Of a stretch of 64,000 nt of DNA, positions 33,737 to 47,345 are shown piece by piece (positions within the stretch are counted from its first letter, which is position 1; every line of letters begins with the position of its first letter). A program made the position numbers and the translations under genes. Source of the DNA: an uncultured Pedobacter sp. Lineage in GTDB: Bacteria > Bacteroidota > Bacteroidia > Sphingobacteriales > Sphingobacteriaceae. Where the stretch lies: the NCBI GenBank assembly GCA_965650335.1, contig CBFGOI010000003.1, positions 28,152 to 92,151 on the forward strand. Direction: 5' to 3'. The notes beneath the pieces were generated by a model. The model had not been told where the DNA came from, ran no database searches, and saw only the letters and a list, made by a program, of their open reading frames with translations.

Positions 33737-34315
33737 ATGCTGAAAAAACTTTCTGATAATGATCTTCTTGAATTACTGAAGGATGGCCAGATGGCTGCAT
33801 TCGACGAGTTATACAATCGTTATTGGTCTAAATTATATTCCCAGGCCTATAAGAGAATTAACAGAACTGAAGTGGCAGAGGAGATTGTTCAGGATTTTTT
33901 TACCAGCCTTTGGATCAATAAAGATTCGGTGATCATTCATACATCGTTCAGTAATTATGCCTATGCGGCTGTTAGGAATCTTGTTTTTAAGCAATATCAG
34001 AAAGAATATAACGTCCGAAAATTCGAAGATGCTCATAAAATGAGCCTTGTTGAAAGCGATACTTCAACCGAGCAACTCATAGAGTTAAATGATTTGCGAC
34101 GGGTACTGGAGCAACAGGTAGAAACTCTGCCTCCCAAATGCAGAGGGGTTTTTAATCTCAGTCGCAAAGAATATAAAAGCAATAAAGAAATTGCTGCCAT
34201 TCTTGAGATTTCTGAGAAGACGGTTGAAAATCATATGACAAAAGCACTTAAAACGCTGCGTTTAAGTGTAAAAAATATTATCCCGCTAGTTTTAGCCTTT
34301 TCTAAGTTTTTTTAA
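33737..34315 (+). CDS. ECF sigma-70 factor (Bacteroidota PUL-associated type)
   Basis: AFDELYNRYW, AEEIVQDFFTSLW and region 4 LPPKCRGVFNLSR...KEIAAILEISEKTVENH. Confidence 0.93.
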   Translation: MLKKLSDNDLLELLKDGQMAAFDELYNRYWSKLYSQAYKRINRTEVAEEIVQDFFTSLWINKDSVIIHTSFSNYAYAAVRNLVFKQYQKEYNVRKFEDAHKMSLVESDTSTEQLIELNDLRRVLEQQVETLPPKCRGVFNLSRKEYKSNKEIAAILEISEKTVENHMTKALKTLRLSVKNIIPLVLAFSKFF

Positions 34316-34390: not shown

Positions 34391-35410
34391 ATGCAAGACG
34401 AAGTAATATTTCAATTAGTTGATAAGTATCTCAAGGGAGAATGCACCCTTGAAGAAGAGATGGTTATTATGAACTGGTATAATTCTTTTAATTCTACAGT
34501 TGACCCTATATCACTTTTATCTGAAAAACAGCAAGACGATCTAAAAGCCGCTATGCTTAGTCGCATCAAATTTAAAATCTCAACGATGCCGGTCGTCCAT
34601 TCGAAAAGATCAACCAATTCAATAAAAGGGTATTATTATGCTGCGGCAAGTATTGCCGCGGCATTTTTGATTGTGTTTTCATTACTGAATCAGAACTTTA
34701 AAAAGGGTAAGCCGGAAGAGAATGTTTTAGCAGAGATTGCTACTCAAATTAATTTTAAGAACGATCTTAACAGGATTCAAAAATATATTTTACCCGATAG
34801 CACGATTGTATGGCTTCAGCCTGATGCCGCTATCAGTTACGATCATGATTTTGTTCGACAAACACGGGATATAAAATTGGCTGGCGAAGCATTTTTTGAA
34901 GTAACGAAGGATGCAAAACACCCATTCCTGATTCACAGCGATGACTTTATTACCAAAGTATTAGGTACAAGCTTTAACGTGAAATCTTATGCAGGGGCTA
35001 ACAATGCCGAGGTTTCGGTGGTTACAGGTAAGGTTTTGGTTTATACTCCGGCTTCAAAAAATGAAAAATTGCGCAGTGTTTATCTGCTTCCAGCACAAAA
35101 GGTGACATACAATAAGGCCAAACATCAATTGATAAAACTCAAAGTCGAGGAGCCAACTTTAAGCATTTGGGAAAAGAATACCCTCTCTTTTGAAAATGAA
35201 CCAATCACTAAAGTGGTCGAAACTTTAAATAGAACGTTTAAAGCCAAAATCATTTTAACGGATCCTGATATCAGCCAGTTAACCTTAAGAGCGGATTTTA
35301 CAGATGTTAATTTGCCTAATATTATGGACATGCTGTCCAAATCTTTAAATATTACTTATGAGCTTAACGGAGATACAATCATAATCTCCAAAAAACCTGA
35401 AACTAACTAA
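34391..35410 (+). CDS. FecR-family anti-sigma factor
   Basis: Cytoplasmic N-terminus, one TM, LPDSTIVWLQPDA, LAGEAFFEV, VLGTSFNV and a C-terminal domain (LSFENEPI...LDMLSK-like). Confidence 0.92.
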   Translation: MQDEVIFQLVDKYLKGECTLEEEMVIMNWYNSFNSTVDPISLLSEKQQDDLKAAMLSRIKFKISTMPVVHSKRSTNSIKGYYYAAASIAAAFLIVFSLLNQNFKKGKPEENVLAEIATQINFKNDLNRIQKYILPDSTIVWLQPDAAISYDHDFVRQTRDIKLAGEAFFEVTKDAKHPFLIHSDDFITKVLGTSFNVKSYAGANNAEVSVVTGKVLVYTPASKNEKLRSVYLLPAQKVTYNKAKHQLIKLKVEEPTLSIWEKNTLSFENEPITKVVETLNRTFKAKIILTDPDISQLTLRADFTDVNLPNIMDMLSKSLNITYELNGDTIIISKKPETN

Positions 35411-35464
35411 AATTTAACCTAACCCCCCTGCATGAAAAATGAAATAGAATAATTAGAAAGTATT

Positions 35465-35572
35465 AAAAAGTTAAGAAGTGGTTGCGACACTTCTTAACCC
35501 AAAACCTAAACTATCGGATTAGTGCTTTATCACTAATGCCAGGTTTTTTATTGTCTCATTTTTGGAAATAAA
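35465..35572 (-). ncRNA. Putative cis-antisense sRNA in the susC1 leader (copy 1); ends approximate
   Basis: Perfect 11-bp stem gttaagaagtg/cacttcttaac (35470-35498) with an A5 tract on its left, i.e. a U-tail on the minus strand. Minus-strand TACTTTTA (-7-like) overlaps the susC ATG. The element is duplicated at 41.7 kb. Confidence 0.5.
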
Positions 35573-35584
35573 ACAAATAAAAGT

Positions 35585-38500
35585 ATGAATTTTTATTTAC
35601 AACTCTCTAATGACTTAGGTTATATTATGAGAATTACATTAAGTCAATTAATAATATTTATTGTTTTAACAGGTGTCTCCTATGCCGACGAAAGCAACGC
35701 ACAAGGTGTGTTGAATAACTCTGTTAAATTAAATCAAACTACCACTACGTTAAACAATGCCTTAAAAAAGATTGAAAAAGTAGCCGATGTCAAATTTGTT
35801 TATAGCAAAAACATCATCGATGCAGACCAATTAGTTTCCATATCGGCAGATAGCGAGAAGCTTTCTGTCATACTCGACGATTTACTCAAGTCTCGAGGTA
35901 TCGGGTATGAGGTAATGAACCAGCAGATTATTTTAAGTCCCCTGGTTCCTGAAGAAAAAAATACCGGATCAGGTGATATTAATTCAGTAAGGCAGGATAT
36001 AATCGTTACCGGAAAAATTACGGATCCAAGCGGCGAGCCTTTAATCGGGGTGAGCATTAAATTGAAAGGCTCAACATCTGGTGCAGCCAGCAATGTCTCA
36101 GGAAATTATTCAATTACCATACCTTCTAACATCACAAATCCGGTATTAGTGTTTTCATATCTCGGCTATGCAACTAAGGAAGTCGCTGTAGAGGGGAAAA
36201 CATCTATCAACGTTCAATTAGTCGAGGATGTTAAAACATTGCAGGAGGTAGTAGTAGTAGGTTATGGCACGCAGAAAAGAGGGGATGTTTCGCAGGCGAT
36301 TGCTTCTGTTGATATGGAGAATCTTAGAGATGTACCGGTAACAAACGTTACGCAGGCTCTGCAAGGAAGGATACCGGGCCTCGTGTCAACTCCCAGTTCT
36401 TTTCGTCCGGGCTCAGGATCAAGTATCAGATTGAGAGGTACCAGATCTTTAACAGCCGGGAATGACCCGCTTTATGTGGTAGATGGTATTCCGATCAGCT
36501 ATACAATTGATGATATCAATCCTCTGGATATTGAATCGATTGATGTGCTTAAGGATGCCGCAGCAACAGCTATTTATGGATCAAGAGGTGCAAATGGAGT
36601 AATTCAGATAACGACTAAAAAAGGAAAGGCAGGGAAGCTTTCTATTGATTATAATGGAAATACATCCGCCGACAATATTGTCAGAAAGCTTGAAGTATAT
36701 AACGGTCCCGAATTCGCCCAGTTTAGGCGAGACGCGTTTATCGGCTCCGGTGTCTATAATGCTACTGCGAATGCGAATAACACCAACAAACGATATTTTC
36801 CTGATCCCGAAGCGGATTACGAATTATTTAAAAGCAATGACAACATGCTTTGGGATAATGTGAAGAATGCGTATGAATGGATTGATCTTGATATTACGAG
36901 CACACCAAAAAGATTTGTTGCTAAAACCCGGCCCACTACAGCAGAAGAAAAAGCTGTAATGGCAAGTTTGGGCTATCCTGTTTTAAATGAAGTTGCAATA
37001 TATGACCCTTCTAAAATTACAACTTATAACTGGGGAGATGATGCCTTAAGAACGGGGATCACCCAAAATCACAACCTTTCTATCTCTGGGGGATCTGATA
37101 AGTTCAGAAGTGCTTTCGGCGGTGGTTATTTTAAACAAACTGGTATCATAAAAAGCCAGGATTTCGCTCGATTCACTTTATCAAATAATAATAATTTCAG
37201 ACCCAGGGAATATTTGAATTTCGGAACCAATCTAAATTATTCCAATGCGATTCGTAATAGCGGTACAGATTTGTATAGTGGCGCAAGCGGGCAGTTTCCT
37301 CTAACCACTCCTTACGATAGCAATGGAAAGTTTCTTCTCAATCCTGGAGCTGACGATCAGGTATTTAATCCTTTAAACGATCCAAATACTGTGTTCGACG
37401 AAACAAGAACTAACCGTTTGTTAGCTAACGTCTTCGGCCAGGTAGATATCTTAAAAGGTCTGAGCTTTAAAAGTGCATTTGGCGTCGACCTTAATACCTC
37501 AAGAAGAGGGCGGTTCAATGGAGCCGTTTCATCCGTCCGACGAAATGCTGCACCCAACGGTAATTACGATACGAATAATGGCTTAGTATGGACACTTCAA
37601 AACCAATTGAGTTATAACACCACCTTTGCGGGGAAACACGACTTTTCTGCGACTGTTGTACAAGAGCTTAGAAAGCGAAGGGACGAAGAGAATAATACCA
37701 GTGCCAATGAACTAACTTACGAAACTCAAAAATGGTATGCCCTGCAAAACAATGCCAAAGGAGTGACTGTGGTTTCGGGTAACTTCTTGCAAGATCAGTT
37801 AGCGTCTCATCTCGGCCGTATTAACTATTCTTATGATAGTAAGTATATATTCTCCGCAGCTCTTCGGCACGATGCTTCTTCTGTTTTGTCTCCTGAAAAT
37901 CAAAGTCAGTTATTCCCTTCTGCTTCTATCGCATGGCGGTTAGACCGGGAATCGTTCATTAAAGCCATACCCGCTATCGAGCAATTGAAATTGCGCTTAG
38001 GATTTGGTGCAGTTGGAAATGCCGGTATAGATCCCTATCAAACTGCTGGTGTTTTATTCAGAGATCCGTCCTATTATAACTTTGGAAATAATGTAGCCAT
38101 CGGATATACCCCCCAATACCTGCGTTCTGAGGTTACTTGGGAGAGAACTATTACAAAGAATCTTGGGGTAGATTATGGATTCTTGAAGGGGCGGTTAACG
38201 GGGGCGATCGATATTTATGAATCGAATACAAACAATATTCAAAATATCCCGCTGCCAGGAGCTGGAGGAATAGCTAGTGCGCTTGTTAATTTGGGAAATG
38301 TTCGAAACAGAGGCCTTGAAATAGCGCTGTCTACTGTTAACATCGACAAGTCTGCCAAAAAGGGTGGGTTTCGATGGACATCAGATTTCGCTTTCTCCAC
38401 TAACAAGGAAGAGATTACAGAATTAAACAATCGGGGCGTTGACGATATCGCACGCCAGTGGTTTTATGGAAATCCGGTTAGAAGTTACTGGGATTTTAAA

Positions 38501-39163
38501 AGCGATGGAATTTTTCAATATACAGATACACTTTCGGGAGGGATACTTAAAGATTATTTCTGGAAAAAAGCCGGAAAAAATGCTGCCAATTTTCAGCCCG
38601 GGCGGATTAGGGTGCAAGACCTAAATGGAGACACCGTGATTAACGATGCCGATAGAGTAATACTTGGTTCTCCCAATCCAAAATGGACAGGTAGCATCAA
38701 CAATACCTTTTCGTTTAAAGGGTTTGATCTTTCAAGCTTTATTTATATAAGCCACGGTTCGCTGGTTAGAGATTTCAGGCCAGGCTTGGTTGGCCGATAT
38801 CCAGGTCAAAAGGTAAATTATTGGACTCCGACCAATCCATCTAATGAATATCAACAGCCAAACAGAACAAGCGATATTCCTCTCTACTGGCAATCTTTAA
38901 GTTTTCGCGACGGCTCATTTGTGAGAGTAAGAAGTATTCAACTGGCATATCACATACCTGCTTCCATGCTCGAACGGTTTAGCTTAAGTAATATGACGCT
39001 ATCGTTTAATGCAGTAAATCCTTTCATTTTCAGTAAATATAAGCGTTACGATCCTGAGACAGTTCCGTATAATTCCACGTATCCTCAGGGAAGTACAGCG
39101 AACCCGGCCCCTACTTCTTATAGTTTCCGAAGCTTTGTATTTGGTTTAAGAATGGGATTGTAA
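35585..39163 (+). CDS. susC: SusC/RagA TonB-dependent transducer with N-terminal STN signalling domain
   Basis: Signal peptide, STN-like segment (LNNALKKIEKVADVKFVYS...), CarboxypepD-like domain, EVVVVGYGTQ, PLYVVDGIP, LKDAAATAIYGSRGANGVIQITTKKG and a beta-barrel. Confidence 0.96.
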   Translation: MNFYLQLSNDLGYIMRITLSQLIIFIVLTGVSYADESNAQGVLNNSVKLNQTTTTLNNALKKIEKVADVKFVYSKNIIDADQLVSISADSEKLSVILDDLLKSRGIGYEVMNQQIILSPLVPEEKNTGSGDINSVRQDIIVTGKITDPSGEPLIGVSIKLKGSTSGAASNVSGNYSITIPSNITNPVLVFSYLGYATKEVAVEGKTSINVQLVEDVKTLQEVVVVGYGTQKRGDVSQAIASVDMENLRDVPVTNVTQALQGRIPGLVSTPSSFRPGSGSSIRLRGTRSLTAGNDPLYVVDGIPISYTIDDINPLDIESIDVLKDAAATAIYGSRGANGVIQITTKKGKAGKLSIDYNGNTSADNIVRKLEVYNGPEFAQFRRDAFIGSGVYNATANANNTNKRYFPDPEADYELFKSNDNMLWDNVKNAYEWIDLDITSTPKRFVAKTRPTTAEEKAVMASLGYPVLNEVAIYDPSKITTYNWGDDALRTGITQNHNLSISGGSDKFRSAFGGGYFKQTGIIKSQDFARFTLSNNNNFRPREYLNFGTNLNYSNAIRNSGTDLYSGASGQFPLTTPYDSNGKFLLNPGADDQVFNPLNDPNTVFDETRTNRLLANVFGQVDILKGLSFKSAFGVDLNTSRRGRFNGAVSSVRRNAAPNGNYDTNNGLVWTLQNQLSYNTTFAGKHDFSATVVQELRKRRDEENNTSANELTYETQKWYALQNNAKGVTVVSGNFLQDQLASHLGRINYSYDSKYIFSAALRHDASSVLSPENQSQLFPSASIAWRLDRESFIKAIPAIEQLKLRLGFGAVGNAGIDPYQTAGVLFRDPSYYNFGNNVAIGYTPQYLRSEVTWERTITKNLGVDYGFLKGRLTGAIDIYESNTNNIQNIPLPGAGGIASALVNLGNVRNRGLEIALSTVNIDKSAKKGGFRWTSDFAFSTNKEEITELNNRGVDDIARQWFYGNPVRSYWDFKSDGIFQYTDTLSGGILKDYFWKKAGKNAANFQPGRIRVQDLNGDTVINDADRVILGSPNPKWTGSINNTFSFKGFDLSSFIYISHGSLVRDFRPGLVGRYPGQKVNYWTPTNPSNEYQQPNRTSDIPLYWQSLSFRDGSFVRVRSIQLAYHIPASMLERFSLSNMTLSFNAVNPFIFSKYKRYDPETVPYNSTYPQGSTANPAPTSYSFRSFVFGLRMGL

Positions 39164-39191
39164 GATTGTTTAATGATATAATTTAAAAACA

Positions 39192-41198
39192 ATGAAAAAA
39201 TATTATATAGTTGCCATAACCCTCTTATTTGTTCTGAGTAATTTCTCTTGTAAGAAGTTCGTTGAAGAGGAATTGATAAGCACCTTAACTTTTGATTACT
39301 ATAAAACGGATAAAGGCCTCGAAGATCTGGTTGAAGCCGCTTACGCTCCCGTAAGGTGGAAGTTCAATAATGAGCAGTCATATACTCTCTTTAATTTTGG
39401 AACAGATGAATTTATCCTGGGCGATCAGTTTAATAATGTGCATTACAATACGTATTCTCCGGTATTAAATCCCAGTGAATCAGCTTTAAACGCCTTATGG
39501 AATAATAATTATGATGGAATTAATCGTTGTAACATAGGTATTGAATTGATTGGTGCCTTCAATGATGCGAATTCGGCCCTTTTAGAAACCGAATCAAAAC
39601 GCAGGCAGCGAATAGGCGAATTGCGTTTCCTGCGTGCCTACTACTATTTGATGATGGTTCAGCAGTTCGGGGGGGTGCCCTTGGTTCTCGAATCAAGTAA
39701 CGAAGTTCGTACTGATTTCCCCAGAGCAAGTACCGCCGATGTCTATAAAGCGATAATTGCGGATTTGATTTTTGCAAAAGACAATTTAGCCCCCACAACA
39801 ACTCTGCTGGGCCGTGCCACCAAAGGGGCTGCACAGCATTTTCTGGCAAAGACCTATCTAACCAGAGGAAGCGCAGTTAGTGTCGAGGCAAAAAAAGAGC
39901 GGGGAACACTGGCTACGGATTTGGATAGCGCTATCTTTCATTCGGAGGCGGTTATAGCCGGGCCCTATGCGCTCGAGTCGGATTACATGAATCTATTTTT
40001 CGGGGTTTATCCAAATGGATATCCGAATGTGTTAACACCGGCAATCGGAGAACACGGATCTGCACCGGCGGGCGATTACGCGAAGCTCGCCACTTCAAAT
40101 AATAGCAAGGAAATTATCTTCGCGGCGCAGTTTATAAACAATATTACCGCAAATGGTACTGGTAATAGAGTGCATGAGTATTTTTTAATGCAGTATGATT
40201 CTGGCATACCAGGAATGGTAAGAGACCAGTTCAATGGTCGCCCATTCCGACGTACCGGCCCATCAGATTATACTATTGATCTTTTTGACCGAAAAAATGA
40301 TTCTCGTTTTTATAAAAGCTTTAGAACGGCATATTATTCCAATGCTGACGCGAAGCTAACTTTCACTTCGGCTAATGCACCAAATCCATCGCTTGTTGGC
40401 AAGCCAAAATTTGGGATAGGAGATACGGCGGCTTTGTTTATTGTAAACAATAGAAATACGGCCATCCTCAATACGGACCTTCCTAAATATCGATATGCAG
40501 CTTATGCACGATACATAAAAAATTCAGCGGGAGTTATTTCAAAAGGTTTTACAACCAGTAAGTATCTCTCTTTGGTTAAGCATATCGACCCGGTGCGTGT
40601 TACTACAACAGTTAATGAGGAATCGGGCGTAAAAAATGGTATTCTGGCCCGACTTGGCGAAACTCATTTAATTGCTGCAGAAGCATATGGAAGAAAAGGC
40701 TTGTTTACAGATGCATTACGACATGTGAATAAAATCAGAGCCAGAGCAGCCTATCATGCCGGTGAATTTAAAAATCCGCAAACCTGGAAATTTGATGGAG
40801 GCACCCCCGGTGATGTTTCTGATACCTATCCTAATATGATAGCAACCACCGCCTTGTTCACAACCAATGCGGCCAGCGAGCTTTACCCAATTACTGTTAC
40901 CACCAATGAAGAACGGTTTATACATTTTATGTTAAATGAAAGAACAAGAGAGCTTTGTGGCGAACTGTATCGTTGGGAAGATCTTGTAAGAACAGAAACC
41001 TTATATCAAAGGGTGAACCAGGAAAATGGTAGTTATATCAAAGACGGTATTACTCAAAAATATAATCCCGATGCAACCGATATTAAACCATATCATAAAT
41101 TGCGTCCCATCCCAAGTCAACAAATTGAGTTAACCACCTCCAATGGTGTAGCCCTCACCCCCGCGGAGAAAGCCGCATATCAAAACCCTGGATATTAA
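39192..41198 (+). CDS. susD: SusD/RagB lipoprotein
   Basis: Lipobox FS-C followed by KKFVEEE, ELRFLRAYYY, FGGVPL, RATKGAA, RLGETHLIAAEA and ERTRELCGELYRWEDLVR. Confidence 0.95.
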   Translation: MKKYYIVAITLLFVLSNFSCKKFVEEELISTLTFDYYKTDKGLEDLVEAAYAPVRWKFNNEQSYTLFNFGTDEFILGDQFNNVHYNTYSPVLNPSESALNALWNNNYDGINRCNIGIELIGAFNDANSALLETESKRRQRIGELRFLRAYYYLMMVQQFGGVPLVLESSNEVRTDFPRASTADVYKAIIADLIFAKDNLAPTTTLLGRATKGAAQHFLAKTYLTRGSAVSVEAKKERGTLATDLDSAIFHSEAVIAGPYALESDYMNLFFGVYPNGYPNVLTPAIGEHGSAPAGDYAKLATSNNSKEIIFAAQFINNITANGTGNRVHEYFLMQYDSGIPGMVRDQFNGRPFRRTGPSDYTIDLFDRKNDSRFYKSFRTAYYSNADAKLTFTSANAPNPSLVGKPKFGIGDTAALFIVNNRNTAILNTDLPKYRYAAYARYIKNSAGVISKGFTTSKYLSLVKHIDPVRVTTTVNEESGVKNGILARLGETHLIAAEAYGRKGLFTDALRHVNKIRARAAYHAGEFKNPQTWKFDGGTPGDVSDTYPNMIATTALFTTNAASELYPITVTTNEERFIHFMLNERTRELCGELYRWEDLVRTETLYQRVNQENGSYIKDGITQKYNPDATDIKPYHKLRPIPSQQIELTTSNGVALTPAEKAAYQNPGY

Positions 41199-41238
41199 TA
41201 AATATTTCTGCCTGCGCTTGTAACCGGGCGCATATCAC

Positions 41239-41270
41239 AAAGGACAAAGCCGAGAGCTTTGTCCTTTTTT
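41239..41270 (+). terminator. Intrinsic terminator after susD1
   Basis: aaaggacaaagc-cgaga-gctttgtccttt followed by more T residues. Confidence 0.85.
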
Positions 41271-41698
41271 GTTACATCAAATACAAGTGAAGCTATCTAC
41301 ATCATCTTTTGCAGAAATTTTTGACGTTCTGCTTTTTCCGTCGCGCGCAGTTTCATGTAAATCTGCCTCGAATTTCTGAAAAAATCGAATGCCAAAGACC
41401 TCAGATCCATCAAAAAAAAATCTCGCGAATTGAGAATTTATCAGCTAATAATTAAAATAGAATTTAACTAAACAGTTTGAAAATAAGAGTGTTGTTGTCA
41501 AATCCAGAGGGTGTTAAATCTCTTTTGAAACCAATTTACCAATATGAAAATTATTATTTAATATCCATTAATTAGCTGTTAGTACAAGTTGTATGATGTT
41601 GCTTTTCGTAAGACAAAAGCCTGATGAAAGGGGCTCGAAACCTAATTGAACAATTAAACTAATAAGAATGAATAGAGGAAAGCAAGCGAAAGATTATT

Positions 41699-41810
41699 AA
41701 AAAAGTTAAGAAGTGTGTGCAGCACTCCTTAACCAAAGACCTGTCTATCGAATAATAGTGCATTATTTCTAATGCCCAGGTTTTTTATTGTCTCATTTTT
41801 TGGAAATAAA
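41699..41810 (-). ncRNA. Putative cis-antisense sRNA in the susC2 leader (copy 2); ends approximate
   Basis: Stem gttaagaagtg/cactccttaac (41705-41733). Its single A-C mismatch becomes a G-U pair on the minus strand. A6 tract at 41699-41704, and minus-strand TACATTTA over the ATG at 41823. Confidence 0.5.
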
Positions 41811-41822
41811 ACAAATAAATGT

Positions 41823-44800
41823 ATGAAATTTTACCTACAAGTCTCTAGTAAGTTAGGGAATATTCTAAGAAACAGATTAAGTCAGCTTGTGCTGGCTATT
41901 AGTTTAACCGTCATTTCTTTTGGAGAGAACAATTCCATTATTGTATCTGCTGCAAAAGCACAGACACGCGTTTCGGGAAAAGTTACCGATGCGTCAGGCG
42001 AAGGCCTTATTGGCGTAAGTGTAAAACTGAAAGGCAGCAGCACCGGAGTGGCGACGGACGTTTCAGGGAATTACGTTACAACTATTCCTGATAATGTTGC
42101 CAGTCCCGTGCTCGTATTTTCTTATATCGGTTTTGTATCTCAGGAAGTTGCTGTTAATGGCCGAACAACAATTAACGTTCAGTTAGTTGAAGATACCAAA
42201 ACCCTCGAAGAGGTGGTGGTGGTAGGTTATGGTACTCAAAGAAAAAGTGATGTTACCGGTGCCTTAACAAGTGTTTCTGCCGAAACAATTCAGGAACGTC
42301 CGGTTACCAATGTATTGCAGGCTGTACAGGGGAAAGCAGCCGGAGTAAACGTTACGACCAATTTAAAGCCGGGTGAAACGCCGAACGTAAGCATACGGGG
42401 TAACCGGTCTTTAGGAGCATCGAATGATCCATTATATGTAGTTGATGGTATTCCAATTGTATCTGCTTTGGGCGTTACTTCATTTTCTATCAATGATATC
42501 AACCCCAATGATATTGCGTCAATGGAAATTTTAAAGGATGCTTCAGCCACCGCGATTTATGGATCTCGCGGAGCAAACGGTGTGATTCTTATTACCACTA
42601 AAAAGGGTTCGCAAGGAAAAGTTGCTATAAACTATAGCAGTACAGTTGCCTTGGACTGGTATAAATCATTAACCGATTGGATGAATGGGAGCCAATATAT
42701 AGATCGATGGCGGGAATCTCTGATTAATGGTCGTCAGTACGGAAATATCCCTACCACGATCAATAACTCTGATCTATCTAAACCCGCTGTAGTTTGGTAT
42801 CCCGATCCATTTGAAGATGTTAAAAGGATGGGACTTGGATCGGATCTTGTGGCACGGAATTCCGTTTGGATGGGGTATGATTGGGATGAGTTTGGGGTAA
42901 CAGTAAAAACCCGTCCGACAACTGCACAAGAACAGGCTATGGGTTGGCCGGCTCAGGTTCCGATATATAACTCAGCCAATATCAGGTCGTACGACTGGAC
43001 CAATGATGTTCTCCGCCAGGGGATAAATCAAAACCATCAAATAGCGCTCAGCGCAGGTTCGGAAATCTCCCGTTTATACCTCTCTCTTGGATACAACAAT
43101 GTAACAGGGGTTCAAAGAGATCAGGATTTTAATAGATACAACGTCAATCTGAACGGAGATATCACCGCCACTAAATGGCTAACACTGGGAACTTCCATAA
43201 TGGGTTCTTTCTCAACACAGAATTATGGCATATTTGGCCCGAATACCAGCAATACTGGCTCTAAAGATTTATACTCAAGGGCTCTTGATCAATTTCCTTA
43301 TGCACTTCCCAGGGGCGATAATGGCGAGTTTATTAGAAATCCGGGAGGAAATCTCAACTTGTGGAACCCAATAATTGATATAGACCAATCTGTAAATGAG
43401 CGACGTTCGGCATCGGCAATGGCCAATATGTTTTCTGAGGTGAAGTTCACCCCATGGTTAAAATACCGCCTCAACTTCGGAACACAGTTCCGAACATTCA
43501 GAATTGGAGCATGGACTGGTCCGGAAGCGACAAATCACTTAACAAACAGACCAAACACTGCCGGATATAACAGAGATGAAAACTTCTCCTGGGTAGCAGA
43601 GAATCTTTTGTATTTAAATAAAACCTTCGGTAGCGATCATGTGCTGGGTGTTACCTTGTTGCAGTCGGCTCAAAAGTCGAGAAGAGAAAATGTTGCTACA
43701 AGCGTATCTGGTACAACTATTCCGTTAAGTATGTGGTATGATCTTGCTTCCAATACAAATGGCCAGCCAAATAGCTATGGGTCCAGTTTTACAGAAAACA
43801 CCTTGTTCTCTTATATGGCACGGGCTAATTATACTCTGATGAATAAGTATTTACTTACCGCATCAGGGCGCTTTGACGGAGCTTCTGTACTTGCCAAGGG
43901 ACATAAATGGGACTTTTTCCCTTCGTTTGCTCTCGCCTGGAAGATGCATGAGGAGAAGTTTTTAGAAGGAGTTGATTGGATCAGAGAGTTAAAACCTCGT
44001 TTGGGATACGGAGTGACAGGTAATTCATCGGTGCAACCATATACTACTTCAGGTCCTTTGAGTAGAAACCCTTATATATTTGGTAATTCTCCGGCTATTG
44101 GTTACTTGCCTCAATTGGTACAGAACCCAGATCTGGCCTGGGAAAAAACAGCTCAGTGGAACTTCGGGGTAGATTTTGCTGTCCTTGACAATCGCTTGTC
44201 CGGAGCTATTGAAGTGTACGATTCAAAAACATCTGATTTAATTATGCCTAGAACTATTAACGCGGTTTCTGGCTATGTTACCAAATTTGAAAATATTGGT
44301 AAAACACGTAACAGAGGTCTGGAAATAACACTTTCATCGGATAATATTAAGAAGAAAGATTTTAGCTGGAGTACCGACCTTAATTTTACAACGAATAAGG
44401 AAGAAATCGTTGAGCTGATTAATGGTAAGGAAGACATGCTTTCGAATAATTGGTTCATAGGCCAGCCATTGCAGGCATTTTATTACTATGATTTTAACGG
44501 TCTGTGGCAAAATACCCCCGAGGACCTTGCCGAAATGGCGAAGTTTAAAGCTACTAGTGGTCTTAATTTCTATCCTGGAACAGTTAGGGTGATCGATCAA
44601 AATGGTGATTATAAAATCGACGGTAACGATATGGTCATCAGAGGTTCGGCCAGACCGAAATGGACAGCAGGTATCACCAACACCTTTACCTATAAAAATT
44701 TTAGTTTAAGCTCGTTTGTTTATGCACGAATAGGACAGACCTATTTTGGTGGATATCCTAATTCCTATGGCGGTATTTTCCCTAATGGTCGTGTTGAAAA

Positions 44801-45164
44801 TGATTTATGGTCATGGACAAATCCAGGCGGACGTTGGCCTATGGCTATCATGGGAGCGACGGTAAGTAATTTTTCGCAAGCAATGCAGTATAATCGCGGT
44901 TCATTTGTAGCCGTTAGAAATATTTCGCTTACCTACGATGTTCCCTCGAAACTGATTGAAAAATATACCTTAAAAAATGTCCAGCTAAATATTCAGGTGC
45001 TAAATCCCTTCCTTTTTGGAGGAGATTTAGTTAAGTGGGGAATTAATCCTGATGATGAAACGAACTGGGAAAGGATTTCAAGTAATGGTGGGCCTTTAGG
45101 CGGAACGAATAATAATACAATTCAGCCTCAAAGTTTTGTATTTGGGATACGCGCAGGTTTATAA
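41823..45164 (+). CDS. susC: SusC/RagA TonB-dependent receptor, paralog of susC1 lacking the STN domain
   Basis: ATG at 41823 chosen by alignment with the susC1 leader and N-terminus (MKFYLQVS vs MNFYLQLS). EVVVVGYGTQ, LKDASATAIYGSRGANGVILITTKKG and C-terminal SFVFGIRAGL. Confidence 0.96.
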   Translation: MKFYLQVSSKLGNILRNRLSQLVLAISLTVISFGENNSIIVSAAKAQTRVSGKVTDASGEGLIGVSVKLKGSSTGVATDVSGNYVTTIPDNVASPVLVFSYIGFVSQEVAVNGRTTINVQLVEDTKTLEEVVVVGYGTQRKSDVTGALTSVSAETIQERPVTNVLQAVQGKAAGVNVTTNLKPGETPNVSIRGNRSLGASNDPLYVVDGIPIVSALGVTSFSINDINPNDIASMEILKDASATAIYGSRGANGVILITTKKGSQGKVAINYSSTVALDWYKSLTDWMNGSQYIDRWRESLINGRQYGNIPTTINNSDLSKPAVVWYPDPFEDVKRMGLGSDLVARNSVWMGYDWDEFGVTVKTRPTTAQEQAMGWPAQVPIYNSANIRSYDWTNDVLRQGINQNHQIALSAGSEISRLYLSLGYNNVTGVQRDQDFNRYNVNLNGDITATKWLTLGTSIMGSFSTQNYGIFGPNTSNTGSKDLYSRALDQFPYALPRGDNGEFIRNPGGNLNLWNPIIDIDQSVNERRSASAMANMFSEVKFTPWLKYRLNFGTQFRTFRIGAWTGPEATNHLTNRPNTAGYNRDENFSWVAENLLYLNKTFGSDHVLGVTLLQSAQKSRRENVATSVSGTTIPLSMWYDLASNTNGQPNSYGSSFTENTLFSYMARANYTLMNKYLLTASGRFDGASVLAKGHKWDFFPSFALAWKMHEEKFLEGVDWIRELKPRLGYGVTGNSSVQPYTTSGPLSRNPYIFGNSPAIGYLPQLVQNPDLAWEKTAQWNFGVDFAVLDNRLSGAIEVYDSKTSDLIMPRTINAVSGYVTKFENIGKTRNRGLEITLSSDNIKKKDFSWSTDLNFTTNKEEIVELINGKEDMLSNNWFIGQPLQAFYYYDFNGLWQNTPEDLAEMAKFKATSGLNFYPGTVRVIDQNGDYKIDGNDMVIRGSARPKWTAGITNTFTYKNFSLSSFVYARIGQTYFGGYPNSYGGIFPNGRVENDLWSWTNPGGRWPMAIMGATVSNFSQAMQYNRGSFVAVRNISLTYDVPSKLIEKYTLKNVQLNIQVLNPFLFGGDLVKWGINPDDETNWERISSNGGPLGGTNNNTIQPQSFVFGIRAGL

Positions 45165-45185: not shown

Positions 45186-47345
45186 ATGAAAAGATATATT
45201 TCAATTTTGACAGTATTGATTTTGATCAGCCTTGGCTCCTGCAAAGATTTTCTGGAAGAAGAGCAGGTTTCAAGTTTAACTCAACAGTATTTCGAGGACG
45301 AAAGTGGATTGAATTCACTTATTAATGGCCTGTATGTGTATGCGCGGGTAAAGCATGAATGGGACGGCAATGGAACAAAATTAATTGAACCCGAAACAGA
45401 TGCCTACATGCATACCAATCTGGGCTTTGCCCGAATGAGCCCTGAACAGTATGGCTCGGACATAACCGGAATCGCCCCGAATGTAAATAACTACATTGGT
45501 AGTGCAAATGCAGGTTTTGCCCCAATGGGAGCTTATCCTCACATTAATAACTGCAACATTGCTCTGGATGTTATCGATAATATTCGCCCCGGCAAATTCG
45601 GTACCGATGAAAATTTCAGAAAGGCACGCAGAGCAGAAATTCTGTTTCTGAGGTCCTGGGCTTATTATTTAATTTCTAATCAGTTGGGAGATGTTCCTTT
45701 GTTGTTGACCCCGACAAGGGAAGATAGGGGGATCTATTATTATCCAAAAGCAAAACTCGAAGACATTTATAAACAGATAATTTCTGATGTGCGCTATGCA
45801 TACGATAATCTGCCCGGAACAACCGAGCAGGGTCGTGCTTCGAAATGGGCTGCCGGCCATTTTCTTTCGAAGCTGTACCTTAATCGTGCACAGGCAGCAG
45901 GATTTCAAAATAGTGCTGAACTGCATTTGAAAATGCTCTATAAGGGAAATGTGGCCACTGACCTGGATTCGGTGATCACGATTTCAACCGCAGTGATCAA
46001 TGGAATGGGTGGAGTAGCCGGACTTGCACCAGATTACTGGACCTTGTTTGATCCAAAGGTTTCAGAAACCAATCCCCATAAAGAAGTATTATGGTCGGCC
46101 CAGTTTGATATAAATCTTACTTTGAACGGTCGCTTTCAAAACCGCTCAATAAATTATCATATTGGCGATTATACTTCTCAAACAGGAGTAAGCAGGACCA
46201 TGGCCTATGGTCGTCCGTTTGGTACATATAAACCCACCGATTGGGGATACGATAATTTTAGAGATAAAGTAAATGACTCCCGTTATTACAAAACTTTTCA
46301 ATACGAATATATCAGTAATATGCCTCTTTCAACAAGTTCATCCTATACCTGGAGTGCAGCAGCGGCAGCCTGGTGGAATGCAAATAAGCCAGCCGGGGAA
46401 CCGGCAGTAACCGCTGGCAGCAAAAGGATATTAACAGGTCAGCGGGCACTTATTTATCTCGAAAACCAAAAGAACGAAGCGCTGGATTCTGCTATGGTAA
46501 TGAGTATGCCTTTTCAATTCATGGTTCGTTGGATCAAGTCGGCGACTACCGGAAGGTATTATTACAGATTATTTATAGACCAATCATCCATGGGTTTGGC
46601 GACAGGCAGAACAGCACCCTATCTTTCCTCTAAGAAATATATAGATCCTTTAAGAGGAGGCAGCTCTGATGAAGCAAATTTCAACAGTGAAAGCGGTACC
46701 CGGGACGTTATTTTAATGCGCTTAGCAGAAACATATCTGATCCGGGCAGAAGCCTACGGACGAAAAGGCCAGTACGCATTGGCTGTAAGTGATATTAATG
46801 TGCTGCGCCAGAGAGCAGCCTATAAATCGGGTGAAGCTCGTCCTAAGGTTCTGGTGGAATATGAACCCAAGGCAGCTACTTTGGCAGCCAGCGAAAAACA
46901 AGCTCCTTATCCTGCCAGCGGAACTTCTTATGCGGCTATACAGGTTTCGGAAAATTATTTTACACCGGGTACTCCTCAGGCACTGGCCGAAGGTTACATT
47001 CCAACTGTTTCCTCAAAAGCAGATATGTTCATCCACTTTATTTATAATGAAAAAGGACGCGAATTCCTGTCGGAAGGTTTAGCCTGGGAAGATTTACATA
47101 ATGCAGGCATTCTATACGACCGCGTGGTTTACCTCAATCAGATGGCTTCACCGCTCACCGGTTTGTGGCCCGTAGCCTTTAATACACAAAGCGGCAACGG
47201 TCAGAATGGAAACGGGAAAGGACAGATGCAAAAGTATTATACTTTCAGGCCATGGCCTAATGCCTATTTGGTGCAATTAACGGATGCCAATGGAAATGCC
47301 TTGGATGCTTCGGCAAGAGCCGCTTACCAGAATCCGGGTTATTAG
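45186..47345 (+). CDS. susD: SusD/RagB lipoprotein
   Basis: Lipobox LGS-C followed by KDFLEEE, EILFLRSWAY, LGDVPL, RASKWAA, MRLAETYLIRAEA and EKGREFLSEG. Confidence 0.95.
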   Translation: MKRYISILTVLILISLGSCKDFLEEEQVSSLTQQYFEDESGLNSLINGLYVYARVKHEWDGNGTKLIEPETDAYMHTNLGFARMSPEQYGSDITGIAPNVNNYIGSANAGFAPMGAYPHINNCNIALDVIDNIRPGKFGTDENFRKARRAEILFLRSWAYYLISNQLGDVPLLLTPTREDRGIYYYPKAKLEDIYKQIISDVRYAYDNLPGTTEQGRASKWAAGHFLSKLYLNRAQAAGFQNSAELHLKMLYKGNVATDLDSVITISTAVINGMGGVAGLAPDYWTLFDPKVSETNPHKEVLWSAQFDINLTLNGRFQNRSINYHIGDYTSQTGVSRTMAYGRPFGTYKPTDWGYDNFRDKVNDSRYYKTFQYEYISNMPLSTSSSYTWSAAAAAWWNANKPAGEPAVTAGSKRILTGQRALIYLENQKNEALDSAMVMSMPFQFMVRWIKSATTGRYYYRLFIDQSSMGLATGRTAPYLSSKKYIDPLRGGSSDEANFNSESGTRDVILMRLAETYLIRAEAYGRKGQYALAVSDINVLRQRAAYKSGEARPKVLVEYEPKAATLAASEKQAPYPASGTSYAAIQVSENYFTPGTPQALAEGYIPTVSSKADMFIHFIYNEKGREFLSEGLAWEDLHNAGILYDRVVYLNQMASPLTGLWPVAFNTQSGNGQNGNGKGQMQKYYTFRPWPNAYLVQLTDANGNALDASARAAYQNPGY

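Follow-up and report, generated by a model that had tools for sequence, protein, structure and literature searches.

Leaders shared by two susC genes of a Pedobacter genome are predicted to carry DonS-like antisense RNA genes

What is the function of a leader that is shared by two neighbouring susC genes, when only the first of them has a sigma factor and an anti-sigma factor of its own? This question is raised by a 64,000-nucleotide (nt) stretch of DNA from an uncultured Pedobacter sp. (contig CBFGOI010000003.1, positions 28,152 to 92,151; hereafter the window, numbered from its first letter), in which susC1 and susC2 are preceded by homologous leaders. Our analysis of these leaders indicates that each of them probably carries, on the minus strand, the gene for a cis-antisense RNA of about 110 nt of the DonS-like type, a reading that we hold with good though not full confidence. 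Such an RNA had been predicted in a first-pass annotation made from the letters of the DNA, and it is supported by a terminator of constant orientation with a covarying stem, an excess of G-U over A-C pairs, a 5' hairpin that forms only on the antisense strand, a putative promoter box and the association with sigma/FecR genes.

The homology of positions 35461-35610 and 41695-41850, claimed in that annotation, was confirmed, with 82% identity over about 190 nt, as was the near-identical core of about 55 nt, which ends at each ATG. BLAST against the whole 4.79-Mb assembly found two copies of the leader only (E = 9.8e-45 for the second copy and E > 0.2 for all other matches). The surroundings had been described as unrelated, and this is correct insofar as copy 1 follows the 3' end of fecR and copy 2 follows a 430-nt spacer that separates it from a plus-strand terminator at 41239-41267; however, weak similarity reaches about 25 nt beyond the A-tract (to about 41668). 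The signs of strand reported earlier were also found again. On the plus strand the A-tract precedes the stem (35465-35469 in copy 1, 41699-41704 in copy 2), the single stem substitution in copy 2 gives an A-C mismatch on the plus strand and a G-U pair on the minus strand, and minus-strand boxes that differ at one n position (TACTTTTA and TACATTTA) overlap the two ATGs. The predicted RNAs and their parts, all on the minus strand, are as follows.

About 35574 (transcription start site, +/-3) to about 35465, minus strand: predicted antisense small RNA 1, about 110 nt (comparison, folding, covariance model)
35585..35578, minus strand: -7-type box of copy 1 over the susC1 start codon, CAT followed by A (sequence, family alignment)
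35574-35553, minus strand: P1, 5' hairpin of RNA 1
35561-35550, minus strand: invariant core AAAUGAGACAAU of RNA 1
35547-35501, minus strand: P2, middle domain of RNA 1
35500-35468, minus strand: terminator stem-loop of RNA 1
35469-35465, minus strand: U-run of RNA 1
About 41812 (transcription start site) to about 41699, minus strand: predicted antisense small RNA 2, about 114 nt (terminator scan, folding, covariance model)
41823..41816, minus strand: -7-type box of copy 2 over the susC2 start codon (sequence, family alignment)
41812-41790, minus strand: P1 of RNA 2
41798-41787, minus strand: core of RNA 2
41785-41735, minus strand: P2 of RNA 2
41734-41704, minus strand: terminator of RNA 2
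41704-41699, minus strand: U-run of RNA 2

The lengths of 110 and 114 nt were counted from the box to the U-run and are predictions, not measurements. The resulting intervals (35574-35465 and 41812-41699) lie close to the ends estimated before, with 5' ends near 35572 and 41810 and 3' ends near 35465 and 41699. Both copies score 141 bits against the covariance model of the element. The region of RNA 1 folds with a minimum free energy (MFE) of -33.5 kcal/mol and is more stable relative to its background on the minus strand (z = -5.26) than on the plus strand (z = -3.43), and the region of RNA 2 behaves similarly (MFE -31.9 kcal/mol; z = -5.56 minus, z = -2.56 plus). For copy 2 the terminator scan gave a match at 41734..41704 on the minus strand. 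The 3' hairpin has the form of a Rho-independent terminator: on the minus strand, and there only, a stem of 11-13 bp with a loop of 7 nt is followed by U5-6.

Strand and pairing were counted on an alignment of 33 sequences (A3). The proposed pairs are formed in 93.5% of cells, compared with 84.6% in shuffled alignments, none of 500 of which reached the observed value, and sliding the partners by 1-3 columns lowers pairing to 43-57%. In the terminator helix, compensatory changes on both sides were found in 10 of 12 pairs, and the cells that are not Watson-Crick, read antisense to susC, comprise 34 G-U and 1 A-C; the corresponding numbers for P1 are 64 and 3. In P1 the invariant AAAUGAGAC is paired with the complement of the region where translation of susC begins, which varies (GUUUUAUUU, GUUUCGUU or UGUUUCUUU). 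Two of its pairs are U-G on the antisense strand and would be C-A on the sense strand, and another genus has substitutions (U to C, A to G) after which only the antisense strand still pairs. P2 is closed in almost all members by a long-range helix whose sequence differs between genera (AAAACC/GGUUUU, GCCC/GGGC, GUCCCCC/GGGGGAU and CCACCUG/CAGGUGG). The full-length fold is more stable in the antisense direction in all 33 members, with means of -36.1 kcal/mol antisense and -26.9 kcal/mol sense. The U-run follows the stem on the antisense strand only in every member, and the terminator is antisense-oriented in both copies and in the 33 aligned relatives.

At the putative promoter, counting eight bases from the T of CAT, the complement of the start codon, 10-13 of the 33 members have TAnnTTTG, 18 have TAnnTTTA and the rest a variant with one mismatch. 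The offset of the box over the ATG is fixed and the P1 stem begins 3-4 nt past it, a distance that fits the promoter element of Bacteroides thetaiotaomicron described as 'centred at -7' (PMC7366714). In most members TT[TC]G is found at a fixed 14 nt upstream of the box, across an AT-rich spacer, at a site that is also constrained by coding for SusC residues 4-6; the spacing of the -33 element has been described as variable (PMC7366714).

Several points weigh against this reading. Because alignment A3 came from a model of the antisense strand, its pair counts are slightly biased, and common ancestry accounts for many of the G-U cells, which are not independent; when columns are counted instead of cells, the terminator has at least 7 with G-U and 1 with A-C (p ~0.07). 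The 3' arm of P1 and the bases after it are invariant across genera and the other arm varies, so these invariant bases are under some constraint beyond base pairing, which could be a DNA signal of the sense strand. Two reservations about the promoter made in the first-pass annotation are justified: in the window, as in its genus, the last base of the box is A (TAnnTTTA) and not the consensus G, and the only upstream TT[TC]G, at 14 nt, is closer to the box than usual. The A-rich context of the start codon also raises somewhat the chance rate of such boxes. Finally, whether the RNA would meet a long 5' untranslated region (UTR) or only the promoter-proximal ~25 nt as its target depends on the sense-strand start site of susC.

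Some further features of the leaders were observed. The loop-proximal part of the terminator, (G/A)AGUG-N6-8-CACU(U/C) (35477-35491; L130:1588-1612), is kept in spacers and families that share no other sequence, which is unusual for a plain terminator. The invariant core of the predicted RNA contains AUG AGA CAA UAA (minus strand, 35559-35548 and 41796-41785), an open reading frame (ORF) of 3 codons after an A-run; its length varies in other genera and it is probably incidental. Between the fecR stop codon and the antisense terminator nearly every spacer, including those of most relatives (L044, L041, L040), has a motif AACC...(T)ATGA (35423-35450 and 41668-41700), which opens a mini-ORF of 2-10 codons (ATG ACA TAG; MNRGKQAKDY* in copy 2; MNKKAAEKTY* in the related genome G007). 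Its context resembles that of susC start sites, and it may serve as a leader peptide or a standby site, or may have arisen by chance in A-rich DNA. As a two-box promoter the motif was rejected, with a spacing too variable and an occurrence not clearly above chance in A-rich DNA.

The distribution of the element shows a strong link to sigma/FecR loci. A first covariance model (R1), built from 10 sequences after BLAST in relatives, detects it in 18 of the 37 genera of the family, or 67 of 201 genomes, and a single genome may have as many as 10 matches. A search with a covariance model had been put forward as a check on the prediction. Leaving aside the copy-2 type, 30 matches were fetched; each of them is preceded by a sigma gene and fecR and followed by susC, at whose ATG the antisense 5' end of the element lies. 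The copy-2 type, with no sigma or fecR gene upstream, was found in three species of the genus of the window: copies 1 and 2 are 6.2 kb apart both in the window and in G007, and they occupy different contigs in Pedobacter superstes P351 (G005). Paradesertivirga mongoliensis KCTC 52859 has copy 1 only. A scan of named genomes for exact patterns identified the family as Sphingobacteriaceae (Mucilaginibacter, Pedobacter, Arcticibacter, Paradesertivirga, Pararcticibacter, Anseongella). Over all species genomes, the pattern TTCATANNTTT-N12-22-AAATGAGACAAT gave 67 loci, of which the real ones all belong to Sphingobacteriaceae or unclassified Bacteroidota; matches in Mariniphaga, Cyclobacteriaceae, Muribaculaceae, Parabacteroides, archaea and others were discarded as chance, none of them being beside susC. 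With a second model (R2), 400 genomes of the phylum yielded a single match outside the family, in which the core is not conserved. This sequence family is thus restricted to Sphingobacteriaceae, though the design is wider.

The wider design is visible in the same assembly, where we compared 12 FecR_C loci with 36 susC-like genes without FecR linkage. An antisense box over the ATG and/or an antisense terminator 60-90 nt upstream is present at 11 of the 12 FecR-linked susC genes and at 4 of the 36 unlinked ones (Fisher p = 6.5e-7), copy 2 being one of these four. The spacers of the FecR-linked genes are otherwise unrelated in sequence. Most of the other FecR-linked susC genes have an exact TAnnTTTG, and several exact boxes are TAAATTTG, TACTTTTG, TACCTTTG, TACATTTG and TAATTTTG. 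The further genes are these.

Ten further FecR-linked susC genes with one or both features: C82:16249, C184:906, C5:71920(-), C55:24997, C16:9162(-), C83:5597(-), C156:2120(-), C65:5019, C69:18107(-), C4:69016

The same design was found at fecR-susC junctions of other families of Bacteroidia in a random sample, and in the single R2 match outside Sphingobacteriaceae, and was not seen in the other sampled classes of the phylum. Since the design recurs at FecR-linked spacers of unrelated sequence, the duplicated leader is one sequence family within a general class. We also noted two susC genes without FecR and without the signalling extension that nevertheless have an antisense box and terminator, C35:8924 (+) in this genome and L164 in Mucilaginibacter (G188:C1:870714-873862), which show that the sigma-less arrangement of copy 2 is not unique.

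The two leaders belong to the following genes and sites of the plus strand.

33737..34315, plus strand: extracytoplasmic function (ECF) sigma factor gene (Pfam Sigma70_r2, Sigma70_r4_2, Sigma70_ECF)
34391..35410, plus strand: FecR-type anti-sigma gene (Pfam FecR, FecR_C)
35585..39163, plus strand: susC1, TonB-dependent transducer type (Pfam Plug, CarbopepD_reg_2)
39192..41198, plus strand: susD1 (Pfam SusD_RagB, SusD-like_3)
41239..41267, plus strand: intrinsic terminator closing the susC1-susD1 unit (12-bp stem, then TTTTTTG)
41440..41545, plus strand: conserved block upstream of the susC2 unit, candidate promoter/operator of susC2 (alignment of three genomes of the genus: G000, which is the genome of the window, G007 and G005)
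41823..45164, plus strand: susC2, without the N-terminal signalling extension and without its own sigma/anti-sigma (Pfam)
45186..47345, plus strand: susD2 (Pfam SusD_RagB)

The ORFs of the copy-1 unit encode sigma, FecR, SusC and SusD only. SusC1 has an N-terminal region of about 135 amino acids ahead of its CarboxypepD_reg domain, and its residues 54-116 give a weak FecR_C-like match in Pfam. The Pfam search agrees with the earlier statement that the susC2 unit has no sigma/anti-sigma pair, copy 2 being 6.2 kb downstream of the pair of copy 1. The conserved block (TAAACAGTTTGAAAATAAGAGTGTTGTTGTCAAATCC...) is about 100 nt long, lies about 300 nt upstream of susC2 and is also kept in G005, where the unit occupies an unlinked site. 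The ATG at 41772, listed as the ORF start, is in frame but lies within leader 2; the corresponding ATG is out of frame in copy 1, and 41823 was therefore taken as the susC2 start shared by the family (MKFYLQ...). At this start SusC proteins of the family are extended N-terminally of the signal peptide by M[KN]F.L[QR]......IM[KR]IT[LF]SQL (35585-35650 and 41823-41890 in the window). The reading frame of this extension is kept across genera, its indels being multiples of three, and its first codons are also the putative antisense promoter region.

How did a leader of this kind come to stand before susC2? The first-pass annotation held that it was kept after a duplication. Its duplication together with the gene is unlikely, as leader 2 and susC2 have discordant nearest relatives. 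SusC1 and SusC2 are 39% identical, and SusC1 residues 36-131 are absent from SusC2. Over its first 400 residues SusC2 shares 70% identity with L043, a FecR-linked SusC from a different genus, and 47% with SusC1. Leader 2, in turn, most resembles the copy-1 leaders of its own genus, with 79-83% identity overall, and its variable middle region is 65-78% identical to these leaders versus 47% to that of L043. The different nearest relatives imply separate histories of leader and gene, and the most likely origin of leader 2 is an exchange or conversion between the units, inside the genus, and not inheritance with a duplicated gene. Such an exchange in itself argues that the sharing of the leader was selected.

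If the predicted genes are active, the following scheme may be proposed. Transcription would begin at a primary-sigma promoter with the -7 box, the TA of which would be the complement of the susC start context (sense CAAAnnTATG or TAAAnnTATG), and the RNA would start 3-4 nt past the box, at the G that opens P1. It would then run through the invariant AAAUGAGACAAU and the closed P2 and end at the GC-containing stem-loop with U5-6. Such an RNA would pair without a mismatch with positions of about -11 to -120 in the susC leader, the A-rich translation-initiation region included. By analogy with DonS it may repress susC, lowering the output of susC and susD by pairing with the leader (a block of initiation and/or cleavage) or by collision with sense transcription, and this lowered output would set a threshold against the ECF-sigma/FecR signal. 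If the block at 41440-41545 is the promoter of susC2, the whole of RNA 2 would be complementary to the 5' UTR.

The similarity of the leaders also bears on whether the two units may regulate each other. The first ~45 nt of the two RNAs differ by single-base bulges only, so that each RNA could pair with the other leader. The calculated duplex energy is -127 kcal/mol with the non-cognate leader, compared with -188 and -196 kcal/mol with the cognate ones and -30 to -37 kcal/mol with unrelated leaders of the same genome. Cross-pairing is thus plausible thermodynamically, and cross-repression between the two units, as proposed earlier, might follow from it. A further step would be that the invariant core (antisense AAAUGAGACAAU and an A-rich linker; sense ATTGUCUCAUUU) is a shared recognition site, a seed or a protein-binding site, through which paralogous antisense RNAs act in trans on all leaders that carry it. 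Leader exchange would then recruit a sigma-less pair into a neighbouring or unlinked sigma/FecR/sRNA (small RNA) regulon, and the leader would be a transferable cassette and not strictly cis-acting. We regard this extension as unlikely.

In an alternative reading the leader is a sense-strand signal, an ECF sigma promoter or operator with a susC 5' UTR common to both genes, through which a single sigma/FecR pair would drive the two, and the hairpin is a processing, attenuation or protein-binding site of the sense strand. A block GG-N6-TTGTCTCATTTTT stands at a constant 34-37 nt from the ATG and does not vary between genera, as expected of a promoter read by one conserved clade of sigma factors. 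GTC, which is common as an ECF -10 element, occurs in the core, and susC2, coming after a terminator, needs a promoter of its own. However, no conserved -35-type element was found 16-18 nt before or after GTCTCA, a region that is the variable middle hairpin, and a search of the DNA ahead of the sigma gene did not find the motif. A separate conserved block is present ~300 nt upstream of susC2, ten other FecR-susC spacers of the genome lack the core and still have the antisense terminator and/or box, and the stems accept G-U on the antisense strand only and are followed by no U-run on the sense strand. We consider this alternative improbable. It is compatible with an antisense RNA, as the core could serve both, and it competes with it mainly for the role of the core.

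To the same low degree we credit the view that the antisense terminator is a mere insulator against pervasive antisense transcription from the AT-rich 5' region of susC into the fecR and sigma genes, with the RNA as a by-product. Most antisense starts of B. thetaiotaomicron give short, weakly expressed and maybe spurious transcripts (PMC7366714), and the box in the genus of the window is below consensus (TAnnTTTA), both of which would agree with it. An insulator, however, does not need P1, P2 and the 12-nt core, which are conserved and covary across genera, or a box at a fixed position relative to P1. Moreover, the design is kept where no fecR lies upstream, at copy 2, at the unlinked copy-2 unit in G005, at C35:8924 and at L164 in G188. 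That the leaders resemble each other as a neutral relic of recent duplication or conversion, with no bearing on function, is very improbable: leaders 82% identical before proteins that are 39% identical, and the discordant nearest relatives, indicate that conversion or exchange happened, but the leader is conserved with compensatory changes at orthologous positions in at least 18 genera, copy 2 is retained in three species, in one of them at an unlinked site, and the matches of the family, all at fecR-susC junctions, are not a mobile repeat.

The antisense RNA thus remains the reading we prefer. If the RNAs are expressed, antisense control of glycan uptake of the DonS type extends from gut Bacteroides to Sphingobacteriaceae of soil and freshwater, and its presence at nearly every sigma/FecR-linked susC would make it a standard third component of these signalling modules rather than a curiosity of Bacteroides. 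A sequence family with a covariance model, covariation support and cultured carriers offers a tractable system for the question of susC repression. The susC2 unit is a natural experiment on cross-regulation, to which Pedobacter superstes P351, with its unlinked copy, is particularly well suited.

Comparison with known systems places the element as follows. Besides RNAs of the DonS type, two groups of small RNAs are known at susC leaders, the dCas12f-sigmaE guide RNAs and FopS/GibS, and the element belongs to neither. In Rfam 15 nothing relevant was found, either with gathering thresholds over the whole window or with E <= 10 over 35300-42000, where only unrelated weak matches appeared. The guide RNAs of dCas12f-sigmaE systems and the hth-associated non-coding RNAs (PMC13472631) are likewise small RNAs of Bacteroidota that match DNA just upstream of susCD genes controlled by ECF-type sigma factors; in contrast, these systems lack FecR, have dcas12f beside rpoE, and their RNAs activate transcription. 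We rejected this assignment, since FecR is present here, the unit has no Cas12f-like gene and the predicted RNA is antisense to susC. FopS and GibS of B. thetaiotaomicron are also paralogous small RNAs with a conserved 5' region, single-stranded or 5' sequence leading into a terminator hairpin, and they pair near susC start codons and block translation (PMC11697453). FopS is mostly intergenic and acts in trans by imperfect seed pairing (PMC11697453), whereas the predicted RNAs are fully complementary to a cis target. Membership in the FopS/GibS group was rejected, as no match to the Rfam models was obtained.

The design of the leaders is that of the DonS class, which is already known and to which the element of this Sphingobacteriaceae genome would add. 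DonS of B. fragilis was reportedly described by Cao et al. in 2016 (J Bacteriol 198:2410). DonS is taken as representative of a family of cis-antisense RNAs of 78-128 nt that are divergent to susC homologs and lower their expression (Ryan et al., PMC7366714); ten further RNAs of this orientation were detected in B. thetaiotaomicron, five of them validated by northern blot, with anticorrelation to some cognate susC genes, and the DonS-like RNAs include BTnc009, -055, -077, -123 and -249 (PMC7366714). The predicted RNAs agree with this class in size (110-114 nt here, 78-128 nt in Bacteroides), in being antisense and divergent to the 5' end of susC, in their place in a utilisation locus controlled by a sigma/anti-sigma pair, and in having an intrinsic terminator; the primary-sigma promoter of the class has a putative counterpart here in the box. 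Repression of the susC operon would be the expected role. They differ in their host, a Paradesertivirga/Pedobacter-like member of Sphingobacteriaceae and not a gut member of Bacteroidales, and in belonging to one sequence family that spans many genera and whose core does not vary. The likeness to DonS that is drawn here is one of design. They also differ in that one copy here serves a susC without a sigma/anti-sigma pair or a signalling domain.

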